From NCBI GenBank assembly GCA_035576505.1, contig DATLWH010000298.1, positions 1-37,641 of the forward strand: DNA of 37,641 nt, written 5' to 3'. Within the stretch, counting starts at the first letter, position 1. Each line of letters starts with the position of its first letter. The DNA comes from Thermoanaerobaculia bacterium (GTDB taxonomy: Bacteria > Acidobacteriota > Thermoanaerobaculia > Gp7-AA8). Of this stretch, positions 385 through 29,100 are shown piece after piece. The notes below the pieces were generated by a model. That model was given only the letters and a program-made list of their open reading frames with translations, did no database searches and was not told the origin of the DNA. A program made the translations under genes and the position numbers.

Positions 385-412
385 GCCGGACAGATCGGAC
401 GTAGTATTCGCG

Positions 413-994
413 ATGCCGATTCTGCCGCAGGAGAGAGACTTCTTCCCCGACGACCTGTTCGACCAGCCGATCGAGGAGGCGCCGTGGGAGATCGCGCATC
501 TGCGCAGCCGGCAGGAGAAGTCGGTGGCGCGGCTTCTCATCGACGGCGGCATGCCGTTCTATCTCCCGCAAATCAAACAGACCAAAAAGCGTTCCGGGAG
601 AACGTTCGTTTCCCATCTGCCGCTGTTTCAGGGCTATATCTTTCTGCGCCGCGTGGAGGGTCTTCGCCAGACGCTCTGGCGCACGAGCGCCGTGGTCAAG
701 ATGATCGAGGTGTCGGATCAGGCACAGCTGGCCGCCGAGCTGCTGCAGATCCGGCAGCTCCAGGCCAGCGGGGCCGTTCTCACCCCGCGCATGGATCTGG
801 TCCCGGGCGACCCGGTGCGCGTCAAGGACGGGGCGTTCAGCGGGTACACGGGCGTGGTGACGGAAGAGCGCGGAGCGCTGCGGCTGATCGTGTCGGTGTC
901 GATTCTGCGAAAGTCGGTCTCCGTGGAGTTTCCGCGCGAGATGCTCTCGCAGATGAAACCAGGTGAGTCCGGCCGCGCTCGGCGAAAACTCTGA
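413..994 (+). CDS. NusG-family specialised paralog (RfaH/LoaP/TaA-like transcription antiterminator), NGN plus KOW domains.
   Basis: The NGN-like N-terminus reads WEIAHLRSRQEKSVARLL...FYLP...RTFVSHLPLFQGYIFLR. The KOW-like motif is PGDPVRVKDGAFSGYTGVV. ATG 413 is chosen over the upstream in-frame start at 296 because residues 1-39 of that ORF are low complexity and overlap the previous ORF. Confidence 0.8.
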   Translation: MPILPQERDFFPDDLFDQPIEEAPWEIAHLRSRQEKSVARLLIDGGMPFYLPQIKQTKKRSGRTFVSHLPLFQGYIFLRRVEGLRQTLWRTSAVVKMIEVSDQAQLAAELLQIRQLQASGAVLTPRMDLVPGDPVRVKDGAFSGYTGVVTEERGALRLIVSVSILRKSVSVEFPREMLSQMKPGESGRARRKL

Positions 995-7220: not shown

Positions 7221-7469
7221 ATGACGAAGATCGAAATACTCAATCTCATCGCGCAGCATACGCGAGAGATACTGCCAGGCCTCGACGCGCACGAGTTCGT
7301 CGCTGCCGACCGCCTGGTCGACTTGGGCGCCAATTCCGTTGATCGCGCCGAGATCGCCATGGTCGTGCAGGAATCACTGGGCTTGTCGGTGTCGCGCGTC
7401 GAGCTGTTCGGGCCGAAGAACATCGGGGAGCTGGCGGATCTGTTCCTGAATAAAGCGCATGCAGCCTGA
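7221..7469 (+). CDS. Discrete acyl carrier protein, the donor ACP of a beta-branching (HCS) cassette (AcpK/CurB-like).
   Basis: It is 82 aa with the phosphopantetheine attachment motif DLGANSVDRAEI. It overlaps the start of the downstream KS-like gene by 11 nt. Confidence 0.85.
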   Translation: MTKIEILNLIAQHTREILPGLDAHEFVAADRLVDLGANSVDRAEIAMVVQESLGLSVSRVELFGPKNIGELADLFLNKAHAA

Positions 7470-8676
7470 AGCGGTCGTGACCGGGCTGGGCGTCATCTCG
7501 GCCATTGGTCAGGGGAAGGCTTCATTTATGAACGCGTTGCTTGCGGGCGAGACCGCTTTCGGCGTGATGCGGCGCCCGGGCCGCCAGAACGAATCCGCGT
7601 ATCTCGGCGCGGAGATTCTGGAAATCGGTTTCCCTCAAGCGATCACCAGGCAGACGTTGCGCGCGGCCTCGCTTTCTGTGCAGGTGGCTCTGTTCGTACT
7701 GCTGGAGGCGTGGATCGAGGCGCGGTTATACGACGTCGATCCTCGCCGGATCGGCCTCATCGTGGGCGGCTCGAACATTCAGCAGCGCGAATTGACCCAG
7801 GTTCATGAGGCCTATCGCGACTCTCCGGCGTTTCTGCGGCCCACGTACGCCCTGTCGTTCATGGATTCGGATCTCTGTGGCTTTTGTACGGCGCAGTTCG
7901 GAATACGCGGTCTGGCCTACACTGTGGGCGGCGCATCGGCGAGCGGTCAACTGGCGATCGTTCAGGCGGCGCAGGCGGTCGTCACAAAACAGGTCGATGT
8001 CTGTATCGCGGTGGGCGCGCTGATGGATCTGTCGCATTGGGAGTGCCGGGGATTGCGGGCGCTGGGGGCGATGGGGTCGGATCGCTATGCGAACGAGCCC
8101 GCGCTGGCTTGCCGTCCCTTCGACAGGGACCACGACGGATTCATTTTCGGCGAGTCCTGCGGAGCGGTGGTGATCGAGTCGCTGGAGTCGAGTCAGAGCC
8201 GGGGTCTGAAGCCTTACGCAACGTTGCGCGGCTGGGGAATCGCCATGGACGGCAACCGCAATCCCAATCCCTCGCTCGAGGGAGAAATGCAGGCCATTCA
8301 GATCTCACTCGATGCAGCCGGATGGGCGCCCGCGCAGATCGACTATGTGAATCCGCACGGCACGGCCTCGGTCGTCGGCGACGAAACCGAGCTGAAAGCA
8401 CTGCAGGCCTCCGGATTGTCGGGAGTTTTTTTAAACGCGACCAAGTCACTTATTGGTCACGGTCTCAGCGCCGCTGGTACGGTGGAAGTGATTGCCACAC
8501 TGCTGCAGATGCGGGCCGGGCGGTTGCATCCAACCCGCAATCTGGAGAATCCTATCGAGCCGACGCTCAATTGGGTCAAAGACAAGTCGGTCGAGCATCA
8601 AATCGAGAATGCGTTGACGCTGAGCATGGGATTCGGCGGGATCAATACGGCTCTGTGCTGGCAGCGGCAGAATTAG
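7459..8676 (+). CDS. Non-elongating ketosynthase with active-site Cys replaced by Ser (KS-S, malonyl-ACP decarboxylase; PksF/CurC/TaK-like).
   Basis: The fold is a thiolase/KS fold. The active-site position reads GGASASG, with the Ser codon at 7936-7938 where KSs carry Cys. Both catalytic His contexts are kept (NPHGTAS and KSLIGHGLSAAG). Confidence 0.85.
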   Translation: MQPEAVVTGLGVISAIGQGKASFMNALLAGETAFGVMRRPGRQNESAYLGAEILEIGFPQAITRQTLRAASLSVQVALFVLLEAWIEARLYDVDPRRIGLIVGGSNIQQRELTQVHEAYRDSPAFLRPTYALSFMDSDLCGFCTAQFGIRGLAYTVGGASASGQLAIVQAAQAVVTKQVDVCIAVGALMDLSHWECRGLRALGAMGSDRYANEPALACRPFDRDHDGFIFGESCGAVVIESLESSQSRGLKPYATLRGWGIAMDGNRNPNPSLEGEMQAIQISLDAAGWAPAQIDYVNPHGTASVVGDETELKALQASGLSGVFLNATKSLIGHGLSAAGTVEVIATLLQMRAGRLHPTRNLENPIEPTLNWVKDKSVEHQIENALTLSMGFGGINTALCWQRQN

Positions 8677-8679
8677 CTC

Positions 8680-9456
8680 ATGACCCTTGCCGCCTACGAG
8701 ACGATCAAGGTGGAATTCCAGGATTCGATCTGTTTCTTGCAGATCGACCGGCCTGACGCGAACAACACGATCAACAGCGAGCTCATCACCGAGTGCAATG
8801 ATGTGCTGTCGGTGTGCGAGCAGTCCGCAACTGTCGTCGTATTGAGTGGCTCGCCGGAAGTGTTCTGCTTTGGCGCCGATTTCAAGGCCATCGCCCGCGT
8901 ATCGAAGACGGAGCAGGCCGAGGACGAGGGCCCGGGGCCGCTGTATGACTTGTGGCTGCGCATTGCGTCCGGTCCGTACGTGACGATCTCGCATGTGCGC
9001 GGCAAGGTGAATGCGGGAGGCGTGGGGTTCGTCGCAGCGAGCGATATCGTTCTCGCCGACGAGACCGCGGTGTTCAGTTTGTCCGAGCTGCTGTTCGGGC
9101 TGAACCCTGCGTGCGTGCTGCCGTTCCTCATCCGCCGCATCGGGTTTCAAAAGGCGAATTTACTAACGCTGATGACACAGCCCATCTCGGCGAGGCAAGC
9201 CTGCGAATGGGGATTGGTGGACGCGGTCGAGCCGCAGAGCGATGTTCTGGTGCGTCGTTATTTGCAACGGTTGCGGCGACTGTCAAAGACCGCGATTCGA
9301 CGCTACAAGATCTACATGAGCCGCATCAACGTGCCCCTGGAAGCGCAGAGATCGCCGGCACTCGCCGCCAATCGGGAAGTTTTCTCCGACACCGACAATC
9401 TGCAAGCCATTGCCCGGTACGTCGACCACGGTATATTTCCGTGGGAAAAATCGTAG
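8680..9456 (+). CDS. Enoyl-CoA hydratase/crotonase family, ECH1-type (PksH/CurE-like HMG-ACP dehydratase).
   Basis: CFLQIDRPDANNTIN, EVFCFGADF, YVTISHVRGKVNAGGVGF, FSLSELLFGLNPACVLPFLIRRIG and the FPWE C-terminus closely resemble my recollection of B. subtilis PksH rather than PksI. Confidence 0.8.
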   Translation: MTLAAYETIKVEFQDSICFLQIDRPDANNTINSELITECNDVLSVCEQSATVVVLSGSPEVFCFGADFKAIARVSKTEQAEDEGPGPLYDLWLRIASGPYVTISHVRGKVNAGGVGFVAASDIVLADETAVFSLSELLFGLNPACVLPFLIRRIGFQKANLLTLMTQPISARQACEWGLVDAVEPQSDVLVRRYLQRLRRLSKTAIRRYKIYMSRINVPLEAQRSPALAANREVFSDTDNLQAIARYVDHGIFPWEKS

Positions 9457-9489: not shown

Positions 9490-10422
9490 ATGTTCTCAGG
9501 CCAGGGGTCGCAGTACTTCCACATGGGAAAGGCACTGTACGATGGCAACGACACTTTCCGGGACTGGATGACCCGGCTCGACGAGATTGCACGGCAGTCA
9601 TCAGGCCAGTCGGTAATCGAGACCCTTTACTCCGGTGCTCACCGCATGGGAGATCCATTCGACCGCACCCTGCTCACGCATCCGGCAATTTTCATGGTGG
9701 AATACTCGCTCGCGCAGTCGTTGATTCACGCCGGCGTGCGGCCGGTCAAGGTCCTGGGCGTCAGCATGGGCTCGTTCGCCGCGGCGGCAGTGGCAGGTTT
9801 CATCGATGCCGGCGATGCATTGACCGCCGTGATCCGGCAGGCGATTGCGATCGAAGAAGGTGGCGAGCCGGGAGGCATGATCGCCGTCCTTGCCGACCCG
9901 GGGCTCTTTGCAGAGGACTTTCTCGGCGGCCGCAGCGAACTGGCGGCCGTCAATTTCTCTTCAAACTTCGTCGTGTCCGCAAGACAAACGGAGCTGGCCG
10001 AGATTGCAACGGCCCTAAAACAACGCAACGTCGCCCACCAACGGCTTCCGGTATCGTTTCCGTTTCATTCGCAGTGGATCGATCAGGCGAAATCGGCCTT
10101 CGGTTCTTTCATGACGTCGATTCCATGTAAGCGCGGCACGTTGCCGCTGGCCTGCTGTGACAAGACCACAATCTTGTCCGACCTGTCCGATGACTACTTC
10201 TGGAACGTCGTCCGTCACCCGATTCGATTCCGCGAAACCACCGCGCGGCTGGAACGAGAGGGTACTCACCGCTACATCGACGTCGGTCCCTCAGGAACCT
10301 TGGCCACCTTTCTGAAGTACGGGCTACCCGCAGCCACCGAATCGACGGTCCATTCCATTCTGACGCCTTTCGGCGTGGATCAGAAGAATCTGGCCGCCGT
10401 GTCGGCGTCGGGCGGACACTAG
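9490..10422 (+). CDS. Acyltransferase-family protein of the PksD/PedC-like clade (putative proofreading acyl hydrolase, AH).
   Basis: MFSGQGSQYFHMGKALY, THPAIFMVEYSLAQ, the nucleophile elbow GVSMGSFAAAAVAG (no His before the Ser), PVSFPFHS and GPSGTLATF all fit. The overall pattern matches PksD-type rather than FabD-type ATs. Confidence 0.8.
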   Translation: MFSGQGSQYFHMGKALYDGNDTFRDWMTRLDEIARQSSGQSVIETLYSGAHRMGDPFDRTLLTHPAIFMVEYSLAQSLIHAGVRPVKVLGVSMGSFAAAAVAGFIDAGDALTAVIRQAIAIEEGGEPGGMIAVLADPGLFAEDFLGGRSELAAVNFSSNFVVSARQTELAEIATALKQRNVAHQRLPVSFPFHSQWIDQAKSAFGSFMTSIPCKRGTLPLACCDKTTILSDLSDDYFWNVVRHPIRFRETTARLEREGTHRYIDVGPSGTLATFLKYGLPAATESTVHSILTPFGVDQKNLAAVSASGGH

Positions 10423-10427
10423 CCCCA

Positions 10428-11189
10428 ATGCGAGTCTTTGCCCTTTCGGACATCCACATCGACTACGCCGTGAACTCCAAGTGGATTGAAGGCCTGTCCG
10501 CCGTTGAATATCAGAACGATGTGCTCATTCTAGCCGGCGACGTGACCCACGCCCCGCGACGGCTGGAATGGTGCCTCAACACGCTCGCGAGGCGTTTTCA
10601 GAAAGTGCTCTTCGTTCCCGGAAACCATGACCTGTGGGTTATCCCCGAAGACCGTAAAAAGAATTCACTGCAAAAGTTCGACGATGTCTGCGCGTTGGTC
10701 GAATCGAGCGGCGCGTCGATGCAAGCGTTTCGCGAGCGGGGTCTGTCGATCATTCCACTGCTGGCCTGGTATGACTATTCCTTCGGCGAGCCGAGCGACG
10801 AATTGAGGTCGATCTGGATGGACTACCGCGCATGCCGTTGGCCGAGCGGATACACCGACAAAGACGTCGCCGTGCACTTTGCGGCGTTGAATGACAAACA
10901 CGTCAGCGTTCTGGGCGACACCGTCATCACGTACTCGCACTTTTTGCCACGCATTGATCTGATGCCGGCGGGCATCCCGCGCTCGGGCAAGCTCCTCTAT
11001 CCAATCCTGGGCTCGGCGAGACTGGACCGCCAGTTGCGAAGGCTAAACGCAAACATTCACGTCTACGGACATAGCCATGTGAACCGTCGCGTGAAGATCG
11101 ACGGCGTAACGTACATCAACAATGCATTCGGCTACCCCAGCGAGACCTGGATCACCTCGAAGGGCCTGATGAGTATCCATGAGTGGTAG
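10428..11189 (+). CDS. Calcineurin-like metallophosphoesterase.
   Basis: The full motif set is present: SDIHID, AGDVTH, GNHDLW, SHF and YGHSH. It overlaps the downstream PPTase start by 11 nt. Confidence 0.85.
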   Translation: MRVFALSDIHIDYAVNSKWIEGLSAVEYQNDVLILAGDVTHAPRRLEWCLNTLARRFQKVLFVPGNHDLWVIPEDRKKNSLQKFDDVCALVESSGASMQAFRERGLSIIPLLAWYDYSFGEPSDELRSIWMDYRACRWPSGYTDKDVAVHFAALNDKHVSVLGDTVITYSHFLPRIDLMPAGIPRSGKLLYPILGSARLDRQLRRLNANIHVYGHSHVNRRVKIDGVTYINNAFGYPSETWITSKGLMSIHEW

Positions 11190-12012
11190 TGCCGCGGACC
11201 GGCGCAGCCAGGCGGAGAGCGGGATCATCCCGCTCACGCCAGCCGAGATTCATGTATGGCTCGCTTTTTACGATGAAATCAGCGACGAGCGCCTGCATGC
11301 CGTCTATCGTCATCTGCTCGATGACGCGGAAAGGGAACAGGAACCACGCTTCTACTTCGCGCGCGACCGGTGTCGTTACCTGGTTACGCGGGCATTGGTG
11401 CGGACGGTATTGTCGCGCTACGCGCCCATCGCGCCCGAGGAATGGATGTTTTCCACGAATGCCTATGGGCGGCCGGCGATCGCGAACGATACTGCGCGCC
11501 ACCTATCGTTCAATATTTCGCACACGCACAGTCTGATTGTTCTCGGCGTGACCAGTCGGCGCGCGTTAGGGTTGGATGTCGAGAACGTCCGCGACCGGCC
11601 AGCGTCGATCGATATCGCGGCTCACTATTTCGCGCCACAGGAAGTTGCGGTGCTTACTGCCGCGCCGCCGCTTCAGCAGCAGGATCGATTTTTTGAGTAC
11701 TGGACGTTCAAGGAATCGTACATCAAGGCGCGGGGCATGGGTTTATCCCTGCCCCTCGACAAGTTCAGCTTTCACTACCCGGATGATCATGCCGTCGAGA
11801 TCGCCATCGATGCCGACCTGGCCGACGATGCGGCACGCTGGCAGTTCTGGCAGTTCCGGCCGAGGCCGGAATACCTGGTCGCGGTCTGCGCCGAGCGAGT
11901 CGGCGCTCAGCCTGCGAGTCTTATCGCTCGGCAGGCAATTCCTATGTTGGCTGACAAACCATTTGTTCTCGACTTCCTCCGGGTTTCAGAACACGCGCAA
12001 CAGGAGAGTTAG
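11179..12012 (+). CDS. Sfp-type 4'-phosphopantetheinyl transferase.
   Basis: FNISHTHSLIVLGV, GLDVE and FEYWTFKESYIKARGMGL (the W/KEA motif) are present. The stop TAG is immediately followed by the ATG of the next gene. Confidence 0.85.
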   Translation: MSGSAADRRSQAESGIIPLTPAEIHVWLAFYDEISDERLHAVYRHLLDDAEREQEPRFYFARDRCRYLVTRALVRTVLSRYAPIAPEEWMFSTNAYGRPAIANDTARHLSFNISHTHSLIVLGVTSRRALGLDVENVRDRPASIDIAAHYFAPQEVAVLTAAPPLQQQDRFFEYWTFKESYIKARGMGLSLPLDKFSFHYPDDHAVEIAIDADLADDAARWQFWQFRPRPEYLVAVCAERVGAQPASLIARQAIPMLADKPFVLDFLRVSEHAQQES

Positions 12013-12885
12013 ATGATCGCCTTTGTATTTCCCGGTCAAGGTTCACAGAAACGTGGGATGGGTCAAGGTTTGTTCGATGAAGTGCCTGAATATGCCGCGG
12101 TTGAGAAGGATGTCGACGCCATTCTCGGCTATTCAATGCGGGCGCTGTGTCTGGAGGACGCGGATAACCGTCTGAGACAGACACAATTCACTCAGCCCAG
12201 TCTCTACGTGGTCAATGCGCTGCACTACTACAAGGCGGCCGGCGAGGGTGCCCGGCCCGCGTACCTGGCGGGCCACAGTCTGGGCGAATACAACGCGCTG
12301 CTCGCGGCGGGCGTGTTCGATTTTCTGACTGGGCTCCGACTGGTGAAGAAGCGGGGGGAGTTGATGTCGCAGGCAAAGAATGGCGGCATGGGCGCGGTGA
12401 TCGGCCTGAGTGCCGGCGCGATTGCCAAGGTCGTAGCCGAGAGCGGACTGCAGAGTCTTGACATCGCCAATTTCAATACACCGTCGCAAACGGTGGTATC
12501 GGGCCCGGTCGACGACATCAGGCGCGCCGGTTCGTTCTTCGAGAAGGCAGGCGCCCAGATGTATATCCCGCTGCAGGTCAGCGCCGCCTTCCATTCGCGA
12601 TATATGGCGGATGCCGCGAACGTGTTCGGTGATTTTCTCGCACCGATGTCGTTTGCTCCGCCGAAAACGCCTGTCGTCGCCAACGTGACCGCCCAGCCGT
12701 ACCCTGCCGACGACAGTTCGGAGTCGGTCAAATCGCTGCTGGTGAATCAGATCACGCATTCCGTCCAATGGGCGCAGAGCATCAGCTTTCTCATCAGTCA
12801 GGGCGTCACGACATTCAGTGAACTGGGTCCTGGAAATGTGTTGACGCGGATGGTGCAACAGATTCAGCAGCGAAAAGCCGCCTGA
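12013..12885 (+). CDS. Malonyl-CoA:ACP transacylase, free-standing trans-AT (FabD-like).
   Basis: FVFPGQGSQ, GHSLGEYNAL and VSAAFHS are present. The size is 290 aa, and all PKS modules downstream lack AT domains. Confidence 0.9.
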   Translation: MIAFVFPGQGSQKRGMGQGLFDEVPEYAAVEKDVDAILGYSMRALCLEDADNRLRQTQFTQPSLYVVNALHYYKAAGEGARPAYLAGHSLGEYNALLAAGVFDFLTGLRLVKKRGELMSQAKNGGMGAVIGLSAGAIAKVVAESGLQSLDIANFNTPSQTVVSGPVDDIRRAGSFFEKAGAQMYIPLQVSAAFHSRYMADAANVFGDFLAPMSFAPPKTPVVANVTAQPYPADDSSESVKSLLVNQITHSVQWAQSISFLISQGVTTFSELGPGNVLTRMVQQIQQRKAA

Positions 12886-12928
12886 CGTATCGCCACGCTT
12901 GCCGAGGCGAATCCCTCGGGAGGAATCT

Positions 12929-14261: not shown

Positions 14262-14510
14262 ATGACGCAACAGGAACTGCACCGAGATTTGACCGAGTCC
14301 TATCTCAAATCTCTCATTGCCGAGGTTTGCGATTCTTTGAGCTCAGATTTCGACTCGTCGACGGCATTTGGTGAGCTGGGGATCGATTCATTCTATGTGT
14401 TGAAGATCGTCAGAAGGCTGGAGGCGGACTTCGGTACGTTGCCCAAGAGCCTTCTTTTCGAGCACTTCCGCATCAGCGAATTGGCGAACTACTTCGTCAC
14501 GAAACACGCC
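14262..14510 (+). other. ACP0, a carrier domain at the extreme N-terminus of the PKS.
   Basis: The motif is FGELGIDSFYVLKIVRRLE, with the Ser43 codon at 14388-14390. Confidence 0.8.
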
Positions 14511-17500
14511 CAGACGATCAATGCGAAGTTTGCCGCGGAACTGGAGGGTGCGGTTTCGCCCGCTTTGGGCGGCGGCCGGCAACTGGAACTGGTTGCGCCG
14601 ATGGAAATAGTCAAGGTGGCTCCGGTGAAGGCGCGCACGTCCGTGGAGCAAAAGCCCCTCCGCATCCTGGAGAGCAAAGCCCGGACGCATCCCAAGATCG
14701 GGCCGCTCGTCCGGGAGCTTTACGACCGCTATAAGTACGAAGGAACCGCGTCGCGCGGGACGAGAAAGATTGCGCCGAATCTATTCATCGGCGGCTCGAG
14801 GCGCGGCTATTTCAACTACGGGCGAAGCAAGGACATCATCCTGGTGTACGGCTATAGCGGGGCGCAGGACTATCTGCCCACGCTTCGCGAGGAAATGTCC
14901 GGCTATTGTGATGCAAACGGCCTTCAACTCAATTTCTTCAGCGACGGAGAGATTCCGCCGATCGCCGGACGTTCGTTCTCAGCCACGCCGTTCGGCGTAA
15001 TGCAGCGCATCGTGAACCTCAAGGAATTCTCCCTCGAGGGCGGCGCGATGCGCCGCCTGCGATATCAGGTATCCAAGTTCCAGAAAGCCGGCGTGGCCAG
15101 AACGGAAGAGTACCGGAGCGGCACCAGGCCCGACACGGACCAGGACATCGCCCGCGTCATCGATCGATGGTGCGAAGGGAAGACGATGGTCAACCCGCTG
15201 GTGCACGAAGTGAAAGGCGAAATTCTCGCCGGCACGCTGCCCGCGGAGCAGCGGCTGTTCCTCACGTATCTCGACGAGGTCCTCCAGAACGTCATCCTCG
15301 TCGATGAAATGTCGCCCGAAATCAACGGCTACTTGATGGATCTGGAATTCTATCCTCCGGAGATGCCGATGGGAGGGCTGGATCTCGCGATTGTACAAAT
15401 CGTGGCCATTCTCGCCGCGGAAGGCCGCGATGTGCTGAGCCTGGGCGGGACCTACGGTGTCAAGATTGAACCCTCCGCCACCGCGGATCCCGAGCTCGAC
15501 AAGCTCCTGGACAATCTGCGTGAACAGAACATATTCAATGACGAGAGCAATCTTCAGTTCAAGAACAAATTCCGCCCGCTGACCATGCCTATCTTTCTCT
15601 GCCGCCCGATAGGCAGCGGCAATCCCGACAATATCCTCGACATCATCATGATGATTGCCGATCCGGAGAGGATGCAGACGCCGGATGAGGAGACCGACAC
15701 CTTCGGAGATACCGCTCCGCCCGAGGTCGCGACGGTGATTGCAGAACCGGTGGCGCGTCGGTCAATGGCTGTGGCAGCGGCGCTGGCAAGTGCCGATCAG
15801 GTGATCGAAGGGAATGATCGGTCGAGCGTTCTGGCGGAATTCGGTTTCAATCCCCTCAATATTCCGCACGAACATGTCGCGATCGATCTGAAGACCGACT
15901 CGTGGGCGCAACTGGAGATGCCTGCAATCGCGGCGCAAATGAAGCATCTGCATTCACGACTGCAGCAGCCGGCGAGTGTCGACGACAGCTTGAGGGCGGT
16001 CTTTCCGTTCCCGCATTTCGTCCTTACGACCTCCGGGCAGGCGGCCGAGAGCATCTTTTTCAAGACCTGGCCGAAGAAAGGCGTCGTACCGCAGAATCTG
16101 CTGTTTCCCAGCACGATCTTCCATCAGATCGACAAAGGCTTCACGCCGAGGGAGCTGCCTCATCCCGCGGTCTTCCAGTTGAATGCGCGAGAGCCGTACA
16201 AAGGCAACATGGATCTCGATGCGCTACAGGCGCTGGTGGCGCAGGATCCAGCCGCAATTGCCTGTGTCTGCATCGATGTAGGTAACAATGCTTCAGGCGG
16301 CCAACCGGTCTCCTTGCAGCATCTGCGCGACGTCAGAGCGCTGCTCGCCGCACATTCCATCCCACTCGTGATCGACGGCACGCGGGTGATGGAGAATGCG
16401 CAGTTCCTGATCGAACAGGGAAAGGAATGCGGGGGCAAGAGCATTTGGGCGGTCGTGCGGGAGATCTTCTCCTGCGCTGACGCGGTCATCGGAAGCCTGA
16501 CGAAGGATTTCTGCGTCAACAAGGGCGGAATCGTCGCCATCAATGACATCAAGCTGTTCCAGAGACTTCAGGAGGTCGTTCTTGAAGAAGGAGCCGGGCT
16601 CGATCTGATCGATGCGAAACTGATCGCTCTTTCTCTACAGAAGCGAAAGCACATCGAAGCCAAGGTGTTGCGCAGGATGGAGGGTGTGCGCCTCATCTGG
16701 CAGGCCTTGGCCGAGCGTGGCGTTCCGGTCGCGCAACCCGCCGGTGGGCACTGCATTCTGATCGACGTCAAGCAGATTCCAGAATTCAGGGCTCTCGGGA
16801 ATCCGGTCGCGTCATTCCTGGCCTGGTTGTATTTGAACACCGGGATTCGCGCGGGCGCACACAGTGTGGGAATGCAGAAACGTACCCCGATCAATGATCT
16901 TGTCCGTCTGGCCATCCCTGTCGGCTTGAAGCGTGAGCAAATCGACAACGTGATTGACCGGCTTGTCGATGCATTCGGGAAGAAGACGAACATTCCTGAA
17001 ATCGTGATCGAGAGCAGCGTACCACAGCCGCTGGGCAGCGTCTACGCGAAGTTCAGATTAGAGAAATATCATCACGTTTCAGGAGGGATCGCCGCCGGAA
17101 CAGACGCCGCGCCTTCTTCCGTTGCCGGCCCATCGCCAGTTTCACCGGAGCCGGCGGAGGTTTCGTCGCCAGGCGAGGCCGTCGTGGTTGACAGCGTACC
17201 CGCCGAAACTCCATCCGCACCGACTCCCATGAATGCGAGACCGCGCCGCGCGCACAACGTTGCCATTGTCGGAATGGCGGGCCGTTATCCCAAAGCGGGC
17301 AATGTGAGGGAGCTGTGGGAGAATCTGGCCGGCGGCAGAGACTGCATTGAAGAGATTCCCGCCGAGCGCCATGAACGCCGGCTGCAGCATGGAAGCAACG
17401 AGAGGTATCGCGGCGGTTTCATCGACGGCGTCGATAAGTTCGACTCTCTCTTCTTCAACATTTCTCCCAGAGAAGCGGAAATGCTGGATCCGCAAGAGCG

Positions 17501-20500
17501 CCTGTTTCTCGAGGTGGCGTGGGAAGCAATCGAGGACGCCGGCTACTTTCCCGAGATCCTGGCGCGGGAGGATACGTCGCGTACGATCGGTGTATTCGTC
17601 GGGGCCGTATGGGCGATGTACCAGGTCGTCGGCGTCGATGAACAGCGCGCCGGCAATGAGGTCGCTCCGAACTCATTTCTGTGGAGCATCGCCAACCGCG
17701 TCTCCTACTGGATGAATCTGTCCGGCCCCAGCCTGACGGTCGACACGGCATGCTCGTCGAGCCTGACGGCCCTCTATCTGGCGTGCGAGGCTATCCAGGC
17801 CGGCGAATGTTCCGCCGCCATCGTCGGCGGCGTAAACCTCGACCTGCATCCGGCCAAACTGGATATCAATAAGATCGGCGGCGCGCTCTCGCCTGACGGT
17901 GTCTGCCGCACCTTTGGGAAGGGTGCGAACGGGTATGTAGCAGGTGAGGGCATCGGTGCGCTCCTTCTCAAACCTTTGGATCATGCGGAGCTGGACCGCG
18001 ACCACATCTATGGCGTGATCAAGGGCGCCGTGGTCAACCATGGCGGCCGTACGAGTGGATATTTCGTTCCCAATCCGTCGGCGCAAAGCAACGTGATCCA
18101 GTCGGCGCTGCTCAAAGCGAATGTCGCGGCGGGAAGCATCGGGTATATCGAGGCGCACGGTACAGGCACCGAACTGGGTGACCCGATCGAGATCTCGGGT
18201 TTGAATAGCGCGTTCAGCGGGGACAAGGTCGAGAATCAAACCTGCGCCATCGGCTCGATCAAGAGCAACATCGGCCATCTGGAAGCGGCGGCGGGAGTGG
18301 TCGCCGTCTCTAAGGTCCTCTTGCAGATGACCCATCGGCAGCTCGTGCCTTCCCTTCATTCCTCCGAGCCGAACGAGCACATCGATTTCGAGCATTCGCC
18401 TTTCTATGTCGTACAGAAGCTGGAGGAGTGGAAAGCGAAGGAAGTGGATGGGGTGCGGCTTCCCCTACGCGCGGGAATCAGCTCGTTTGGCGCCGGGGGA
18501 GCGAACGCGCACATCATCCTGGAGAGTTATGAGCCCGCCGGACAAGCGACAGAAGAACCGGCCATGCCGTCGGACTTGATCTTCCCTCTCTCAGCCAGGA
18601 ATGAGGATCAGCTGCGCGACGCCGCTGTTCGGCTGGCGCAATTCCTTCGACAGAACCGCGTCGACTTGAGGGACGCAGCCTATACCCTGCAACAGGGGCG
18701 GAAGTCGTTCGAGCAACGTCTGGCAATCATCGCCAAAACCCAGGAAGAATTGATCGAGAAGCTGACACTGGTCATCGACCAGCAGAGGGGCGACGGCATT
18801 GTGGCCGGCCATGTGAAGCTCGCGGAGAGTGTCACGCGGTTACTGAACCGAAGTGAGAGACAGGAGTTCGTTCGGATGCTGTCGGCCGGCCGGGATCCTC
18901 ACAAGATTGCCGCATTGTGGGCTGAAGGACTGCTCACGGACTGGCAGGGGTTTCAATCCAAAGGCACCGAAAAGAGAATCTCGTTGCCCACCTACCCCTT
19001 TGCCGGCAAGCGACACTGGATCGGCGATCCGTCGGCGGTGCGCCGCGCATTGCAGCCGGTGGCGGGCACGCACCCGATGGTCGACACGAACGAGTCCACC
19101 TTTGAGCGGCAGCTCTTCAAGAAGACATTCCACGATCGCGACTTCTTCATTTACGACCATCTTGTGTCGGACATCCCCACGCTACCCGGCGTGGCGTATC
19201 TCGAGCTGGCGCGGGTCGCCGGAGAAATCGCGGCTGGTAGGCCGGTGCGACGTATTCAAAACATTCTTTGGGTGAGTCCGATTGTGGTTGAGAACTCGAT
19301 CCCCAAAGAGGTGTTCATCGAGCTGAAGCCGAGCGGAGACGCCGTACAGTTCGAAGTGTTCAGCGAGTCGGCCGAGGGCGTCAGGCTGCTACACTCACAG
19401 GGAAGACTTCTCTACACGAACAGGCCGGAATCCTCCGCGGATCCGGAGTTCGTCGATTTGGATGCCATTCGCGCACGATGTGCGAAAGGCATCGATGGAA
19501 AGAGCGCCTATCCGCTCTTCAAATCTGTCGGCCTCAGCCTCGGTCCGAGCTTTCAGGTCCTCCAGGAAATCTATCAGAGCGATACGGAAGTCCTCGGAAT
19601 TCTGAAACTCCCCGAGTTCCGTCAACCCGACCTGCAAAGCATGGTTCTCCATCCCTCACTGATCGATGGTTCCCTGCAGGCCGGAATGGCCGCGCGCCTC
19701 GGCGCCAGCATCGGCGAGATGCTGGTGCCCTATTCCATCGGCGAGGTCGAGATCCTCCATCCATTGCAATCCCTCTGTTACAGCTATACGACGGAGGCGG
19801 GCGGTAAGAAGGGCTCGCGCGTTCTGAAATCTAACGTACTGATCCTGGACGAAACCGGGAAAGTCCTGGCAAGAATTCGCGAATCGACCGGCGTGCCTCT
19901 GGGTGATGTCAACAAAAAGTCCGACAGGGATGCGGCGGAGGCGGGCGATGCAAAGGTCTACTATTCGTACGAATGGGGGAAGGCGCCTCTGACTGCTGGT
20001 AGTCCGAGCCGGAATGCACCGCAATCGATTCTGCTGTTCGATACCCAGGAAACACTGCGCGATCTCTATCAGGTCCGGCTGACGGAAGCAGGGGCGACGA
20101 CCGCACAAATCATCCTGGTGCAGCCGGCTGCTTCGTTCCGCGAACTGGACGCTCTCTCTTACGAGATCAATCCACAGAGCAGGGATGACTTTACGCTGCT
20201 CTTCGAATCGCTGGCGGAAAGAAAGTGCCCGATTGACGAGATCTGCTTTGCCTGGCCGGTTGAGCACGTGGATTTCCGTGATGAGCAGCTCCGCGGAGAA
20301 GCATTGGAGAGAGGGGTTTTCTCCTTCCTGTTCCTCTGCCAGTCCGTCATTCAGGCGAAACTCGAAGGAAAGGTGCAGCTCCTTTATCTTTATGCAGCGC
20401 GGCCGGACGAGGCACAGCCGCAGAACGAGGCCATGAGCGCTTTCGTCAAGACGCTGAAGGGGGAGTACCCCAGGTTGCTCTGCAAGGCGCTCGAGATTCG

Positions 20501-23500
20501 GCAGGAGATGGGCGGCTACGGCCAGATCGTCGACGCCGTATGGGCGGAGCTTCGCGCACGCACCGAGGATGCGAGTGTGGTGCGCTATGAGGCGCAGGAG
20601 CGCTTTACAAGGAGGCTCACAGCCTTCGACTTCGAAGAGACCGATGGGCCGCCTTCTTCGGAAGGTTCGCATCTGAGGGAAAAAGGCGTCTATCTCATTA
20701 CGGGAGGAGCCGGCGGGCTCGGCCTCATCTTCGCCGAGTTTCTGGCGAAACAGTACAAGGCACGATTGATCCTCACCGGCCGATCCGCTCTGTCGGCTGA
20801 ACGGGAAGCCGAGCTGGAGGCGCTCCGAGGATACGGCGCGGAAGTGATCTATCTGCTCGCCGATGTCTCCAGCCTCGACGATGTCCGGACTATGGTCAGC
20901 GAAAGCAAGTCGCGTTTCGGAGAGATCAACGGCCTCATCCACGCCGCCGGCGTCGTCAGGGACTCGTACATCAGGAACAAGACGCCGGATGAAATGAGCG
21001 AGGTTTTCGCCCCCAAGGTGCATGGAACGCTGCATCTGGACGAGACAACCCGGAACGAAGCGCTCGATTTCTTCGTGATGTTCTCCTCGCTCGCTGCCGT
21101 CACCGGCAATGTGGGCCAATGTGACTACAGCTTTGCGAACCATTTCATGGATTCGTTTGCGGCCGACCGCGAAAGGCTTCGGGTCCAGGGAGAGCGGTCC
21201 GGAAAGACACTGAGCATCAATTGGTCGTTGTGGGCCGGGGGCGGAATGAAGCCCGACGAACAGACCGAGCTCCTGTTGCGGAAAGCCATGGGCATGAAGC
21301 CGCTGAGCGCGGCCGCGGGCATCGAAGCGTTCGTGCTCGGTCTTGCTTCAGGACGCTCGCAGTTTGCAGTCCTCGAGGGGAATGCCGAGAAGCTGGAACT
21401 GGCTCTGGGAGGGAGAAAGAAGGAGCCTGCGCCTTCGCCGCCACCATCGTCCGATCACGCCGCGGCCGCGGTTGTTGCCGCTGAAGGAGACAGGGATCTT
21501 CGTGAGTTGGTGCAGAACGATCTCTCGAAGATCGTCATGGGGCTCCTGAAGCTTGATGCCGCCGACTTGTCGGCAGACAAGATCCTGCTCGACCTGGGTT
21601 TCGACTCGATCGGCCTGACGACGTTCGCAAACGCGGTGAACGACAAGCTGCAGCTCGACATCACGCCGATCCTGTTCTTCGACTATCCGTCGATCGGTGA
21701 GATCGCGACGCATCTGGCTGACGAGCGGAGGAGCGAGCTTCATCACTTCTATCGAGGTTCTGCGGCCCCCTCGGCCGGTACACCGTTGCCAGCAGCACTA
21801 CAAGCGAAGATCGTCGCCGCTGAGAGCCTATCGGCGACCTTCACGCCCAAGAAGGGGTGGGATCCGGCTGCCTTCGATCGCGAAGCATCGGACAGGAAAG
21901 CAATACCAACGGCTTCCGGCGAAGACGTTTCCGCGGAGCTCCGTTTTGTAAACAAGCCGATGGCAATCGTCGGGATGAGCGGCGTCATGCCGCAATCCGC
22001 GGACCTGGAAGAATTCTGGGATAACCTGAAGAACTCGAAAGATCTGGTCACAGTCATCCCGCCCGATCGCTGGCGCTGGGAGGACTACTTTGGCGATCCC
22101 CTCAAGGAGGCGAACAAGTCGAACTCCAAGTGGGGCGCGTTCATGAAGGAGATCGACAAGTTCGATCCTCTGTTCTTCGGAATCTCCCCAAGAGAAGCGC
22201 AGATGATGGATCCGCAGCAGCGGATCTTCCTCGAGCAAGTGTGGAAGGCGGTGGAGGACTCCGGGCAGAAAGTCTCCCAGCTTGCCGGCACAAAAACCGG
22301 AATATTCGTCGGCGTTGCAACCAATGATTATCTCGAAGTCATCACCGGCGGGGGAGCCGTGCTGGACGGATATAGCGCTTCGGGCAACTCGCACGCCATT
22401 CTCGCGAACCGGGTGTCATTTCTCCTAGGTCTGCGTGGACCAAGCGCACCCCTGGACACCGCTTGTTCCAGCTCATTGGTGGCGATGCACAGAGCCATTG
22501 AATCGATCCATTCGGGAAGCTGTGAGATGGCGATCGTGGGTGGCGTACAGGTAATGCTGAGCCCTGCCGCATACATTTCTTTCTCCTCGGCAGGAATGTT
22601 GAGTCCCGATGGAAAATGCAAGACGTTTGACAAGCGGGCGAACGGCTATGTGAGAGGCGAGGGATGCGGCGCAGTCTTCATCAAGTCGCTCGCGGCCGCC
22701 GAGGCGGATGGAAACCACATATACGCGGTCATCAAGGCGACGGCGGAAAATCACGGCGGGCGGGTGACGGCGATGACTGCACCGAACGCATCCGCTCAAG
22801 CGGAGCTCTTGATCGAGGCTTACGAGAAAGGACATCTCGATCCCGGGACCGTTGGGTATATCGAGTGCCACGGCACGGGAACCAGCCTGGGAGATCCGAT
22901 CGAAACGCAGGCGCTTAGCAAGGCGTTTGCCGAGCTGTACAAGCGGCACGGCAAGGCTCCGGCGGACACGCCTCACTGCGGCTTGAGCTCTGTAAAGACC
23001 AACATGGGACACCTCGAGACCGCAGCCGGGATTGCAGGTATCCTCAAGGCATTGCTCGCCATCAAGCACCAGCAGATTCCGGCGAACATCCATCTGGAAG
23101 AGGTCAATCCCTATATAAACCTCAAGAGGACTCCGTTCTACATCGCGGACAAACTCACTTCATGGAAAGCGCCGGTGAGCGTGGATGGGTCTCCTGCCCC
23201 TCGCACGGCCGGCGTGAGCTCGTTCGGCTTCGGCGGAGCCAATGCTCATGTCGTACTGCAGGAGTACCTCGCTCCACTCCGTCAATCGCTGTCTGCAGCG
23301 TGCGAGCCTCGGTTGATCGTGCTGTCCGCGAAAACTGAAGATCGGCTCCTGGCATACATGCAGTCAATACATTCGTACCTGGAGAGGCTGGATGTCGAGT
23401 TGATCGATCTCGCGTATACGCTGCAGATTGGAAGAGATGAGATGCCGGCAAGACTGGCACTGGTCGTCTCCAGTACAGAGGAGTTGAAACAGAAGCTCGG

Positions 23501-26199: not shown

Positions 26200-29100
26200 A
26201 TGGCCTATACCATCGCGGCTCTCGAAGCTGAATTGCCAAGCACGGAGATGAATGACCTGACGGCGGAGATTCTTGCGGCCAGTCTGAAGTCCGTCGGTCT
26301 TTTCAGCGATGGAGTTCACGTGATTACCGACCTTACCCTCGACAAGCAGCCAGCGGAATATTACGAGCGCTGGCTGAGCAGCAGCATCGGCTATTTGCAG
26401 CAACAGAACCTGCTTGCTGACGATCTTACGTTCAAGCTCGGTGTGAGGTCACTCGCTGAGCTTTGGAATGAGTGGGAGGCGAAGGTCTCGGCATGGGCAA
26501 GCAATCCCAACCAACAGTCGCAGAGTGTTTTATTGAAGGCCTGTCTCGAAGGCTTGCCAGCGGTTCTGAGCGGAAAGCGACCCGCGACAGATGTCATGTT
26601 TCCAAATTCCTCGATGCGCCTGGTCGAAGGTCTCTATCGTGGTAACCCCCAAGCGGACTATTTCAATGACATCCTCGGCGCAACCTTGAGCGTCTGCATC
26701 GAACAGCTGCTGGAAGCAGATCCGGAGCACAGGATACGCGTTCTGGAAATCGGCGCCGGCACGGGTGGTACGACGGCGACCCTCTTGCCGATACTACGCA
26801 AATACCCAGTTGAGGAATACTGCTATTCGGACCTTTCCCAGGCTTTCCTGATGCACGGGAAAAGGAACTTCGAACCACAATTCCCAGCCCTGACCACGGC
26901 GATATTCGATGTCTCCAAACCGCTGGAATGGCAATCGATCGCCGCTAACCATTACGACTTTGTCATCGCCGCGAACGTACTGCACGCGACGCCCAATATC
27001 AGGGAGACCTTGCGTAATGCGAAGGCTATGCTAAAGAACCAGGGCGTGCTGCTGCTCAACGAAATCGCCGGGTGGACGTTGTTCAACCATCTGACCTTCG
27101 GCTTGTTGGAAGGGTGGTGGCTGTACGAGGATGCGGCGGTACGACTGCCTGGCAGTCCAGGTCTGTCGCCGGCAAAGTGGCGGGAGATTCTGACAGAGGA
27201 AGGATTTGAATCGATCATTCTGCCAGCCGCGGAAGCACATAAGTTCGGCCAGCAGATCGTTGCCGCGGTCAGTGACGGTTGGACGCGCCAGCGCGTCGTG
27301 AGGCACTTGCCGTCGCAGCGCTCCTCCGCCCCGACGCAGGCGGATGTCCAGAGCCTGGAGGTCGCTGCAACACAGGGAAGCCACACGGTGAAAGGCTCGG
27401 AAGAGCTCAGGCAGCGGAGGAGTTTCGAGTATACGCGCCAGATCGTTACCGCGAAGTTGTCCGAGGCGCTGCGAATGGATGTCGCGGCGATCCGCGACGA
27501 TGCGTCATTCGCGGACTATGGCGTTGACTCCATCGTAGGCGTCAATCTCGTTCGTACGATCAGTGAGGCGCTGCGGATCGAGTTGGAGACGACGAGCCTC
27601 TTCGAATACAGCACTGTCGAGCAGTTGAGCCAGCACATCCTCGAAAACTGGCACGACCAGATTACCGCGCAGGTGGCGCAGCCTCAGGGTACTTCGGAAG
27701 CGCCCGCGCGGGTAGCCGAAGATGCGTCGCCCGCCGAGGCCGAAACACGTTCGGAGCACCGTTTCACTGGAAATACCCGATTGTCCAATGTGCGACATGG
27801 GTTCGATGTCGAGGATGAGAACGAGTTGGACACATTCGCTCCCGCTCCCATCGCTATTATCGGGATGAGCGGACGATTTGCGGAGTCGGAGTCACTCGAC
27901 GCTTTCTGGAAGCATCTCGCGCAAGGCGATGATCTGGTGAAACCAGTTTCCCGCTGGAGCCCGGCGGATTGCGTGACGTCAGGGTCCCCGGGCCAAGCGT
28001 ACTGCAGTCAGGGCAGTTTCATCGACTCTATCGATCAATTCGATCCGGATTTCTTCGGGATTTCCCCGCGCGACGCGACGTACATGGATCCGCAACAGCG
28101 CCTTTTCCTCGAGGAATCATGGAGAGCGCTGGAGGACGCAGGCTACGCCGGAAAGAGCGTGGGTGAGAATCGGTGCGGCGTCTATGTCGGCTGTGGAAGC
28201 TCCCACTACGACAACCTCACTGGGAAAGAGCCACCGCCGGAGGCATTTTGGGGAAATTCTCAGGCTGTTACGCCGGCGCGAATCGCATACAGCCTGAATC
28301 TGCACGGGCCCGCGATGGCGATCGATACGGCCTGCTCCAGTTCCCTCGTCGCCATCCATCTGGCTTGTCAGGGGCTATGGGCGGGAGAAACGGAGATGGC
28401 CTTGGCGGGGGGAGTCTTTTTACAGCCAACGCCCGGGTTCTATCAGGTCGCCAATCGTGCGGGCATGCTTTCGCCGGACGGCAAATGTTATAGCTTCGAC
28501 GCGAGAGCCAATGGCTTTGTACCCGGCGAAGGGGTTGGCGTCGTAGTACTCAAGCGCTTGCGGGACGCTCTGGCCGACGGGGACCACATCCATGGAGTGA
28601 TTGCGGGGAGCGGCATCAATCAGGACGGAAAATCGAACGGCCTGATCGCCCCGAATGGCCGCGCGCAGGAGCGGCTCGAGCGTGCGGTATATGACCGGTT
28701 CAAAATCAATCCGGAAACGATTCAGGTCGTCGAAGCGCACGGCACCGGGACGTCGTTAGGCGACTCGATCGAGTACGGAGCGATCACCCGTGCTTTTTGC
28801 CAATATACGAACCAGAAGCAATTCTGTGCCCTTGGCACGGTCAAAACGAACATCGGCCATGCCTCAACGGCCGCCGGCATCGCCGGTGTCCTGAAACTGC
28901 TGTTGTCGCTGAAGCACCGGCAGATTCCTCCTACTCTGCATTTCGCGAAAAGCAATTCAGCCATCGATCTCGAGTCCGGCCCGTTCTATGTCAACACGCA
29001 ACTGCAGCAATGGGCTGTGGAAGGAGATGAAATCCGGCGAGCGGCCATCAGCTCTTTCGGCTTCAGCGGTACGAATGCGCATTTGGTCATCGAAGAAGCT

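Follow-up and report, generated by a model that had tools for sequence, protein, structure and literature searches.

An MprF-type tandem GNAT domain next to a C-S lyase in an acidobacterial-type trans-AT polyketide synthase: the DUF of a probable sulfur-insertion unit

The 37,641-nt stretch of DNA analysed here (contig DATLWH010000298.1, from a Thermoanaerobaculia bacterium; hereafter the window) carries part of an uncharacterised, acidobacterial-type trans-acyltransferase (trans-AT) polyketide synthase/nonribosomal peptide synthetase (PKS/NRPS), and the element in question lies at positions 14660-15610, corresponding to aa 133-450 of the open reading frame (ORF) 14262-26159 on the forward strand. 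The original prediction recognised in this segment an MprF-like, DUF2156-type aminoacyl-tRNA transferase fold embedded in a PKS loading region, and took it to imply a starter unit drawn from the tRNA pool. The fold has been confirmed. The segment is the domain called ‘DUF’ of a DUF-SH didomain and, with the acyl carrier protein (ACP0) that precedes it and the lyase domain (SH) that follows it, it forms a probable sulfur-insertion unit, not an aminoacyl-tRNA-dependent starter loader. As to chemistry, we consider it fairly probable that an enoyl thioester held on the ACP receives cysteine or thiocysteine through the action of DUF, and that SH then leaves a thiol (-SH) or a hydropersulfide (-SSH) on the chain. 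The features of the unit are as follows (KS, ketosynthase; DH, dehydratase; KR, ketoreductase; GNAT, GCN5-related N-acetyltransferase; PLP, pyridoxal phosphate; AF2, AlphaFold2; NJ, neighbour-joining).

14262..26159, + strand: PKS1, a trans-AT PKS of 3,965 aa with the order ACP0-DUF-SH-KS-DH-KR-ACP-KS-DH-KR (profile domain calls)
14301..14492 (aa 14-77), + strand: ACP0, the carrier directly upstream of DUF (PF00550, 34 bits)
14658..15659, + strand: DUF2156/LPG_synthase_C-type tandem-GNAT domain, the ‘DUF’ of the DUF-SH didomain (PF09924, AF2 model, Foldseek, residue counts)
15042-15086 (aa 261-275), + strand: basic helix of DUF, GAMRRLRYQVSKFQK
15339-15353, + strand: D360-L-E-F363-Y of DUF, a key position
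15558-15572, + strand: F433-K-N-K-F437 of DUF, a key position
15774..17096, + strand: SH, PLP-dependent cysteine/thiocysteine C-S lyase of the tyrosine-phenol-lyase family (PF01212 Beta_elim_lyase, 105 bits)
16494-16511, + strand: predicted PLP-binding Lys748 of SH in the motif SLTKDF (aligned with SLSKDF)
17256..18362, + strand: KS1, an elongating ketosynthase (C-H-H) directly after SH (motif check, NJ tree)

The assignment of DUF, which spans aa ~133-466 of the 3,965-aa ORF, to the MprF-type tandem GNATs of PF09924 is correct, far beyond chance. The excised region matched the LPG_synthase_C profile with 59.0 bits (E 5.2e-16; 54.1 bits when the whole protein was searched) against a gathering cutoff of 27.5 bits, with profile positions 32-297 of 298 covered, and no other Pfam family was found on this stretch even at E<=1. 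Both motifs quoted in the original prediction are in place (EFSLEGGAMRRLRYQVSKFQKAGV at aa 255-278, nt 15024-15095, and NLQFKNKFRP at aa 430-439, nt 15549-15578), and so are the Pfam match that it expected and the domain order ACP-DUF-PLP-KS (PF00550, PF09924, PF01212, then KS). A confident AF2 model (mean pLDDT 91.6, pTM 0.88, with 15 homologues as input) was compared with the Protein Data Bank (PDB) by Foldseek, and the best 16 matches were all synthase domains of alanyl- or lysyl-phosphatidylglycerol synthases (A-PGS, L-PGS; collectively aaPGS) or MprF, with E values from 5e-17 to 1.5e-14 and TM scores of 0.58-0.75. These were followed by the aminoacyl-tRNA (aa-tRNA)-dependent peptide synthases Sbb17/Sba18 (2e-11) and then by FemX (5e-10), while acyl-CoA-dependent tandem GNATs reached TM scores of 0.3-0.45 at most. 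With the C-domains of MprF and aaPGS (PDB 4V34/35/36, 5VRV, 6LV0) DUF shares the PF09924 family, the tandem GNAT fold (TM 0.64-0.75) and the motifs F-x-L-x-G-G...L-R, D-L...P-x-G and F-K-x-K-F-x-P, at a sequence identity of only 14-19%.

The residues that have been kept and lost relative to MprF are more informative as to function. DUF2156-type aa-tRNA transferases are distinguished by a double GNAT fold, by a positively charged helix, alpha(+), which lies between GNAT I (the acceptor side) and GNAT II (the aa-tRNA side), binds the tRNA acceptor stem and, when its charge is reversed, leaves ErgS inactive (PMC7334510, PMC8913301), and by an Arg placed on the aminoacyl alpha-carbonyl (PMC6103681). 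In Agrobacterium MprF (5VRV; AfMprF) the substitutions D750A, R753A, M752L, M763L and F824A each abolish lysyl-phosphatidylglycerol synthesis (bioRxiv 10.64898/2026.04.24.720753); D750 belongs to the aminoacyl (lysinamide) site, R753 has been proposed to activate the ester and F824 to stack on the tRNA ribose. The DUF profile was aligned to 5VRV and residues were counted at these positions in 90 DUF sequences. D750 corresponds to D360, an Asp in 90/90, and F824 to F433, conserved in 90/90 within the F-K-N-K-F motif, where K434, K436 and F437 are likewise found in 90/90 each. M752 is replaced by an invariant Glu (E362, 90/90) and M763 by Leu (L373, 89/90). R753 corresponds to F363, which is Phe in 88 and Leu in 2 of the 90 sequences, and never Arg or Lys. 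The helix GAMRRLRYQVSKFQK is helix 5 of the AF2 model, the last of GNAT I, and aligns with the K/R-rich helix of MprF, its equivalence to alpha(+) being based on the alignment and the topology of the model; its basic residues are strongly conserved (R267 in 90/90, R264 in 88/90, R265 in 87/90, K272 in 79/90 and Lys or Arg at 275 in 82/90). Judged from the alignment, four of the five ancestral sequence hallmarks are thus kept in DUF, and the one that is lost is the Arg proposed to activate the aminoacyl ester. About 40 positions are invariant among DUFs that are 35-77% identical, including a polar cluster (D360, E362, N430, K434, K436, R438) where the ancestral enzyme has its active site. With a median pI of 5.5 the DUF domains are acidic overall, which is weak evidence on tRNA binding because the MprF fragment is near neutral too; ACP0 is itself acidic (pI 4.9), and the conserved basic helix could equally dock the carrier.

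The partner of DUF is an SH domain of known type. The best PDB match of the window SH is 9CEN, a ‘Polyketide Synthase Protein’ (3e-61), with tyrosine phenol-lyases behind it (~2e-46). The name DUF-SH was given by the Shen laboratory to the didomain present in LnmJ, GnmT and WsmR (PMC8479088, PMC7618002), where the SH domains act as PLP-dependent cysteine or, more precisely, thiocysteine lyases, which cleave the C-S bond of L-Cys or L-thiocysteine adducts of polyketide mimics to install -SH or -SSH at C-3, prefer thiocysteine 50-106-fold, and efficiently handle adducts with a free amino-acid moiety, that is, a free carboxylate (PMC8479088). Identities across DUF-SH families range from 30 to 57% (Meng 2021, legend of Supplementary Fig. 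4), and the window DUF is 42-44% identical to P0041, a DUF construct of the leinamycin (LNM) type from Amycolatopsis. This entry is labelled ‘GNAT family N-acetyltransferase, partial [Amycolatopsis sp.]’ and begins with MGSSHHHHHHSQDP...ENLYFQSA, a His-tag with a TEV site; apparently, an expression construct for a DUF of the LNM type has found its way into the databases as if it were a genomic protein.

The view that no PKS module with this fold in cis had been described could therefore not be upheld, since the fold is that of the DUF of LnmJ, GnmT and WsmR (PMC8479088, PMC7618002), and since both the DUF2156 label and the N-terminal architecture had already been reported by Milano et al. 2013 (PMC3870968). 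In Table 2 of the latter paper LnmJ of leinamycin biosynthesis (Q8GGP2) appears with a DUF2156 and, behind it, a Beta_elim_lyase domain, and both Kordia algicida and Lysobacter sp. ATCC 53042 are entered with the order ‘CP-DUF2156-PLP3-KS-KR-CP-KS’. Meng et al. 2021 also catalogued non-LNM DUF-SH PKSs, and 109 dereplicated DUF-SH clusters have been sorted into four similarity groups, three of them non-leinamycin, with the Lysobacter protein included in the alignment (PMC8479088). The window shares with all these systems the domain pair, its order, its place directly after an ACP and the trans-AT PKS setting. Its free-standing KS^S and its enoyl-CoA hydratase homologue of the ECH1 type, without ECH2, are also LNM-like. 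It differs from LNM module 8, which has the order KS-ACP-ACP-DUF-SH-TE (TE, thioesterase) in an eight-module NRPS/PKS, in that the unit stands N-terminally in the first megasynthase and that hydroxymethylglutaryl synthase (HMGS), donor ACP and LnmK were not seen in the window. The window unit belongs to the non-LNM type because it has a single ACP and no TE, and because, at the N-terminus of PKS1, SH is succeeded by a KS.

The genomic contexts of related units indicate what ACP0 carries. When GTDB, at one genome per species, was scanned with a pattern, 272 loci with relatives emerged, of which the best 80 (56-76% identity) were examined; they come from Acidobacteriota, Bacteroidota (Aquimarina, Fulvivirga, Chitinophaga), Oxalobacteraceae (Massilia, Pseudoduganella), Lysobacteraceae, Steroidobacteraceae, Kangiellaceae and others, and the closest genome match of the DUF is an Acidobacteria metagenome-assembled genome (MAG), at 76% identity. 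The ACP-DUF2156-lyase-KS architecture, for which the original prediction had suggested a genome search, was found in one reading frame in 80/80 of these loci, with the ACP ~110-150 aa from the ORF start. ACP, DUF and SH-KS... are encoded as separate genes in loci L082 and L083, the ACP of L082 being a 110-aa gene.

Three contexts of the unit can be distinguished. In the in-line or split type, represented by L015, L027, L028 and L030, the upstream ORF ends in ...KS-KR-ACP-KS-DH and the next one starts with ACP0-DUF-SH-KS, the units being 63-80% identical to that of the window. HMGS is encoded between the two ORFs in L027 and L030, and in L030 a homologue of LnmK (PF18238, 214 bits; PDB 4HZN, 7e-86) accompanies HMGS directly upstream of the unit. 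In L080 (Pseudoduganella) genes for a metallo-beta-lactamase-fold protein, HMGS, ECH, KS^S and AT lie, in this order, between a PKS ending in ...KR-ACP-KS and ACP0-DUF-SH-KS, an arrangement that repeats the logic of leinamycin module 8 in mid-line. HMGS was sought by a targeted search, separate from the survey of neighbour families, and stands beside the unit in L027, L030 and L080. L086 has the unit in an internal position (KS-DH-ACP-DUF-SH-KS...), with a DUF that is 41% identical to the window DUF. Altogether, the unit is fed by a KS-DH or by a KS plus HMGS in six loci, with five units 58-80% identical to that of the window and the L086 DUF at 41%, and it is because of this upstream KS-DH or KS plus HMGS cassette that ACP0 would carry a polyketide chain there. 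Several acidobacterial MAGs contain two different ACP-DUF-SH PKS loci each (L002/L015, L019/L028, L026/L030 and L004/L027), one of the window type with the accessory block upstream, the other a split module after ...KS-DH, with or without HMGS and LnmK. A second DUF was observed in L086, a marine metagenome locus, at 8971-11722, where it follows five tandem ACP0-like ACPs without SH or TE; three of these ACPs lie at the end of a 4,485-aa PKS and two in a separate 573-aa protein, and an ABC transporter and an NRPS come next.

The second, N-terminal type has no PKS within 10 kb upstream and comprises ~75 loci, the window included; in ~75/81 N-terminal-type loci the first megasynthase of the row begins with ACP0-DUF-SH, and this N-terminal placement had been correctly given for the window in the original prediction. 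The third is a one-module synthase of ~2,130 aa, ACP0-DUF-SH-KS-ACP-R (R, thioester reductase), found in Massilia, Steroidobacter and others. Downstream of these synthases are a short-chain dehydrogenase/reductase (SDR)/epimerase and then a GMC-type FAD oxidoreductase, and the Massilia rhizosphaerae cluster also has a KS^S, two ATs and an autoinducer-binding LuxR-type regulator. Cultured strains with one-module synthases include M. rhizosphaerae NEAU-GH312 (L032, 9608-15997) and Steroidobacter/Peristeroidobacter (L069 and L067, 9614-16000).

Homologues of DUF also occur in an operon with neither SH nor a megasynthase. In two soil-metagenome loci (L084, 5360-12511, and L085) free-standing DUF2156-like proteins of 367 aa, which share 35% identity with the DUF of the window and fall in clusters of 87-103 sequences, are encoded in an operon with the gene order 118-aa unknown protein, SDR, AMP-binding ligase, 399-aa unknown protein, DUF, discrete PKS-type DH and MBOAT protein.

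The KS domains of trans-AT PKSs group in clades that track the alpha/beta functionality of the incoming chain. When 45 KS domains were placed in an NJ tree, all those located directly after SH fell into one clade, whether from N-terminal, one-module or in-line types, which suggests that the same chemistry operates in all contexts.

Taken together, these data point to the following sequence of events. ACP0 would carry an electrophilic alpha,beta-unsaturated thioester, in the relatives formed by a KS-DH or by a KS plus HMGS/ECH1 cassette. DUF, a tandem GNAT that would descend from aa-tRNA transferases, would dock on the acidic ACP0, possibly via the retained basic helix, and take up L-cysteine or L-thiocysteine in its counterpart of the aminoacyl pocket of MprF, of which Asp360 is kept. 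It would then catalyse, as proposed in the literature, a conjugate addition in which the sulfur nucleophile attacks the beta-carbon. By homology, SH would then cut the cysteinyl C-S bond, leaving -SH or -SSH on the chain and releasing pyruvate and ammonia, a lyase step that was shown in vitro for the SH domains of LnmJ, GnmT and WsmR (PMC8479088). The thiolated chain would finally be taken up by KS1 for elongation. In the LNM family a carboxylated unsaturated branch is the proposed Michael acceptor, and ECH1/HMGS-dependent formation of the branch on an LNM-family ACP has been shown elsewhere. We favour conjugate addition because ACP-DUF recurs after enoyl-forming machinery (a DH domain, HMGS/ECH1 with or without LnmK, or a discrete DH beside the free-standing homologues), because the C-S lyase is an obligate partner and the window holds an ECH1-only cassette, and because the acyl-activating Arg has been lost and the Asp of the amino-acid site kept. 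By analogy, sulfur insertion is predicted for the product of the window's assembly line.

Several observations weigh against this reading. No KS, DH or HMGS that could provide ACP0 with a Michael acceptor was seen in the window, whose gene row opens with a NusG-like gene and has PKS1 as its first megasynthase, and the one-module relatives show no visible enoyl source. The single clade of post-SH KSs is explained equally well by co-inheritance of the unit. DUF keeps hallmarks of tRNA dependence, namely the basic helix (R264, R265, R267, K272, K275) and Phe433, and its closest fold matches are aa-tRNA transferases rather than acyl-CoA GNATs. Finally, no published assay of a DUF was found, and its conjugate addition is a literature proposal: formation of the Cys- or thiocysteine-polyketide adduct was assigned to DUF by authors who leave it for future study (PMC8479088).

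Four other functions have been considered for DUF. The first, which we regard as unlikely, is that of an acyl transferase acting between carriers, or from a carrier to an acceptor, with sulfur addition occurring spontaneously or being brought about by SH. The idea has its roots in the LNM family, where the ACP adjoining DUF takes no part in condensation or beta-branching and yet is the sole ACP unloaded by the TE, so that the authors ascribe ACP-to-ACP transfer to ‘an unknown transferase’. The end of the L086 system in ACPx5-DUF, without TE or SH, and the presence of an AMP-ligase and the MBOAT acyltransferase beside the free-standing homologues would fit such a role. However, the Arg with which MprF activates the acyl carbonyl is missing, the coupling of DUF with SH is nearly universal (80/80 loci), and ACP-to-ACP transfer would be superfluous in non-LNM modules with their single ACP.

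A second possibility is that DUF still depends on tRNA, cysteine or cysteine persulfide being donated from Cys-tRNA(Cys) as the sulfur source to the ACP0-bound chain, with the tRNA serving as a recognition handle or with transient transfer of the cysteinyl group. The structural comparison speaks in its favour, the best matches being exclusively aa-tRNA transferases (aaPGS 5e-17, Sbb17/Sba18 2e-11, FemX 5e-10) as opposed to the acyl-CoA tandem GNATs with TM scores of 0.3-0.45, and so do the conserved alpha(+)-type helix (R267, R264 and R265 in 90, 88 and 87 of the 90 sequences) and the invariance of Asp360 and Phe433, the counterparts of the essential D750 and F824 of MprF. Moreover, no reported reconstitution of DUF with free Cys was found, and the DUF-SH papers are silent on tRNA: neither tRNA, GNAT nor MprF is mentioned in the supplement of PMC8479088 or in the 2024 Angewandte paper on the neighbouring ACPs, and the literature search found no paper tying a PKS DUF to aa-tRNA. 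Against it, the essential, ester-polarising Arg (AfMprF R753) is Phe or Leu in 90/90, a thia-Michael addition needs no carboxyl activation, and adducts with a free carboxylate are processed efficiently by SH domains. Furthermore, the DUFs are acidic and their basic helix may serve ACP0 just as well, and genes for tRNAs or aminoacyl-tRNA synthetases (aaRS) are lacking in the window, as is any aaRS among the conserved neighbours of the related loci, for which families seen in at least 3 loci were listed. tRNA dependence of DUF is unlikely. An extended form of the same idea, that DUF has kept recognition of Cys-tRNA(Cys) or its persulfide and that ACP0-DUF-SH in the window-type and one-module lines is a self-contained loading module for a sulfur starter, is given a small chance as well. 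If true, the Cys-tRNA reading would make this the first step of an assembly-line PKS fed from the aminoacyl-tRNA pool, and it might explain the lack of reported DUF activity.

The model of the original prediction, in which DUF aminoacylates holo-ACP0 from aa-tRNA and the PLP domain converts the tethered amino acid into the starter of KS1 (for example Cys or Ser into an aminoacrylyl or pyruvoyl unit), shares with the Cys-tRNA reading the evidence from fold and helix. It would also account for the N-terminal position of the unit in the first megasynthase of ~75/81 N-terminal-type loci, often right after the NusG-like gene, and for the one-module lines, for which neither the 10 kb upstream nor the examined downstream flank contained a PKS. 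It is nevertheless very improbable. In six loci ACP0 is in-line or part of a split module and so is not reserved there for an aminoacyl starter; the catalytic Arg is lost; SH is homologous to C-S-cleaving domains, the characterised ones acting on S-substituted cysteines with a free amino-acid end, not on thioester-tethered ones; and DUF is found without SH, both after the five tandem ACPs of L086 and in the non-PKS operon. Finally, a non-catalytic scaffold or docking domain presenting ACP0 to SH, suggested by the loss of one ancestral catalytic residue and by the fact that no report of DUF activity was found, is hardly compatible with ~40 invariant positions, including polar clusters at the ancestral active site, and with the occurrence of DUF without SH, and is highly unlikely.

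The comparison with other members of the superfamily delimits the DUF of PKSs further. Besides the Asp (D750), the Phe (F824) and the basic helix that it shares with MprF, DUF shows the replacement of Arg753 by Phe, of Met752 by an invariant Glu and of Met763 by Leu; unlike MprF it is a soluble domain whose fusion partners are an ACP and a PLP lyase rather than a flippase, and its acceptor would be an ACP-bound acyl chain instead of a lipid. Sbb17/Sba18 and FemX have the same superfold, with a similarity far weaker than that of aaPGS. According to the literature, VlmA, PacB and DhpH/K are further aa-tRNA-dependent transferases from natural-product pathways, and none of Sbb17/Sba18, FemX, VlmA, PacB and DhpH/K is fused to a PKS or paired with a C-S lyase as DUF is. 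The GNAT_L domains of CurA and PedI belong to the GNAT superfamily and share with DUF the N-terminal site beside a PKS ACP, but they are single, acyl-CoA-dependent GNATs whereas DUF is a tandem one. A CurA-type loading domain, which the original prediction had named as an outcome that would speak against it, is ruled out, with PF09924 significant, no acetyltransferase match in Pfam at E<=1 and no more than weak resemblance to acyl-CoA GNATs.

Further genes of the window, each on the forward strand, are:

296..994, + strand: NusG/LoaP-like (LoaP/UpxY-type) antiterminator at the head of the row (PF02357, 31.5 bits vs cutoff 22.2)
2655-3965 and 12899-14173, + strand: paralogous membrane proteins with His boxes, 424-436 aa (weak FA_hydroxylase matches of 17-19.5 bits, below cutoff)
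7459..8676, + strand: free-standing decarboxylating KS^S (PksF/CurC type) of a beta-branching cassette (NF005490, 617 bits vs cutoff 445)
8680..9456, + strand: ECH1-type (PksH-like, dehydrating) enoyl-CoA hydratase homologue (PF00378, 200 bits; NF005498, 404 bits)
9490..10422, + strand: PksD-like acyltransferase homologue, AT1 (PDB 8AVZ, PksD, 2.3e-77)
10428-11189, + strand: metallophosphoesterase, TIGR03729-like (below cutoff), paired with and overlapping the next gene
11179..12012, + strand: Sfp/HetI-type phosphopantetheinyl transferase, PPTase (PF01648, PF22624, NF042922)
12013..12885, + strand: trans-acting malonyl-CoA:ACP acyltransferase of the FabD type (TIGR00128, 330 bits vs cutoff 261)
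26200..33720, + strand: PKS2, MT-ACP (completing a split module)-KS-ACP-KS-KR-ACP (MT, methyltransferase; profile domain calls)
33734..37641, + strand: NRPS, TubC-type docking domain-C-A-PCP-C... (C, condensation; A, adenylation; PCP, peptidyl carrier protein), cut by the contig end (profile domain calls)

The NusG-like gene is followed by genes for HlyD, the first His-box membrane protein, MacB and an ABC transporter, and then by KS^S. That PKS1, PKS2 and the NRPS work in this order is suggested by the module split between the KR of PKS1 and the MT-ACP of PKS2 and by the docking domain of the NRPS. PKS1 is of the trans-AT type, with no cis-AT domains, with RhiE-like and CurL-like KS linkers and with two discrete ATs in the window; the serine that would carry the phosphopantetheine arm of ACP0 is Ser43, in GIDSF (nt 14379-14393), and the modular KSs of the window have the Cys-His-His triad in 4/4. 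In KS^S the active-site Cys is replaced by Ser (GGASASG vs DTACSSS of the modular KSs); NF005490, which it matches, is the family ‘polyketide beta-ketoacyl:ACP synthase’, and the ECH1 homologue matches Bacillus subtilis PksH (PDB 3HP0) at 3e-99. The beta-branching cassette of the window thus consists of KS^S and the PksH-like ECH1 without ECH2, HMGS and donor ACP not being seen; none of HMGS, ECH2, donor ACP, tRNA gene or aaRS gene was found in the 37.6-kb window.

The position of ACP0 in the assembly line can be seen in two ways, which we hold to be about equally likely. A true loading ACP is favoured by the NusG-like gene that opens the row, by the absence of an upstream megasynthase and by the one-module ACP0-DUF-SH-KS-ACP-R synthases. 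An ACP of a split module, the KS half of which would lie past the contig end, is favoured by the close relatives L015, L027, L028, L030 and L080, and by the fact that KS^S and ECH1 occur here without their HMGS. At least 30 related loci (among L005 and L031-L075) have a gene for a homologue of the NusG-like protein immediately before the ACP-DUF-SH ORF.

Of the two acyltransferases, the FabD-type AT carries all of the GHSLGE, Arg and AFHS motifs, whereas in AT1 the malonyl-carboxylate-binding Arg (FabD R117) is replaced by Gln, with GxSxG and the catalytic His kept. The PksD-like AT is the most widely conserved accessory gene (28 loci). PksD is an acyl-hydrolase proofreader, and AT1 probably acts in the same way; its candidacy as a dedicated loader of an enoyl starter was downgraded, as it lacks the malonyl Arg but is a close homologue of PksD. 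The metallophosphoesterase-PPTase pair (10428-12012) is kept in ~20-25 related loci of several phyla, and a recycling role of the ACP-phosphodiesterase kind is conceivable for the metallophosphoesterase. The two His-box membrane proteins flank the transporter genes and the accessory block and recur in a few acidobacterial loci (L002, L003, L004, L009 and L058); an acyl desaturase or hydroxylase is one possibility. In 18 loci (L038, L043-L066 and L074), from Bacteroidota, Lysobacteraceae and others, the megasynthase gene following that of the ACP-DUF-SH PKS opens at ~20,000-21,000 with a class-III aminotransferase domain (PF00202, 85 bits), which suggests beta-amination later in those assembly lines. 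At the window edge (1-148) the 21-nt unit GACCTCGTGGAGACCAAGCGT is repeated 7 times with an 87% match and reads in one frame as DLVE(A/S)KR heptads; nt 1-302 of the window are absent from the metagenomic contig ERZ27256710 k141_712097 of ENA, of which the window is otherwise essentially the whole (37,339 vs 37,641 nt).

The DUF-SH didomain itself was already known, and what is new here is an uncultured, Acidobacteriota-like example of its large non-leinamycin group, which spans 272 species-level genomes in at least 5 phyla. To our knowledge, no PKS device other than DUF-SH has so far been found to equip the growing chain with a thiol or a hydropersulfide, and the DUF half has, according to the literature that was found, still been a ‘domain of unknown function’ ever since the leinamycin cluster was described. 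The yield of the comparison is an MprF-type fold in which Asp, Phe and the basic helix are kept and the Arg is lost, and which recurs beside a DH or beside HMGS/ECH1/LnmK, in in-line, split, N-terminal and one-module variants that include those of cultured Massilia and Steroidobacter strains. The pattern of MprF residues kept and lost, together with the one-module synthases as the simplest systems for study, makes the question of what DUF does directly testable.

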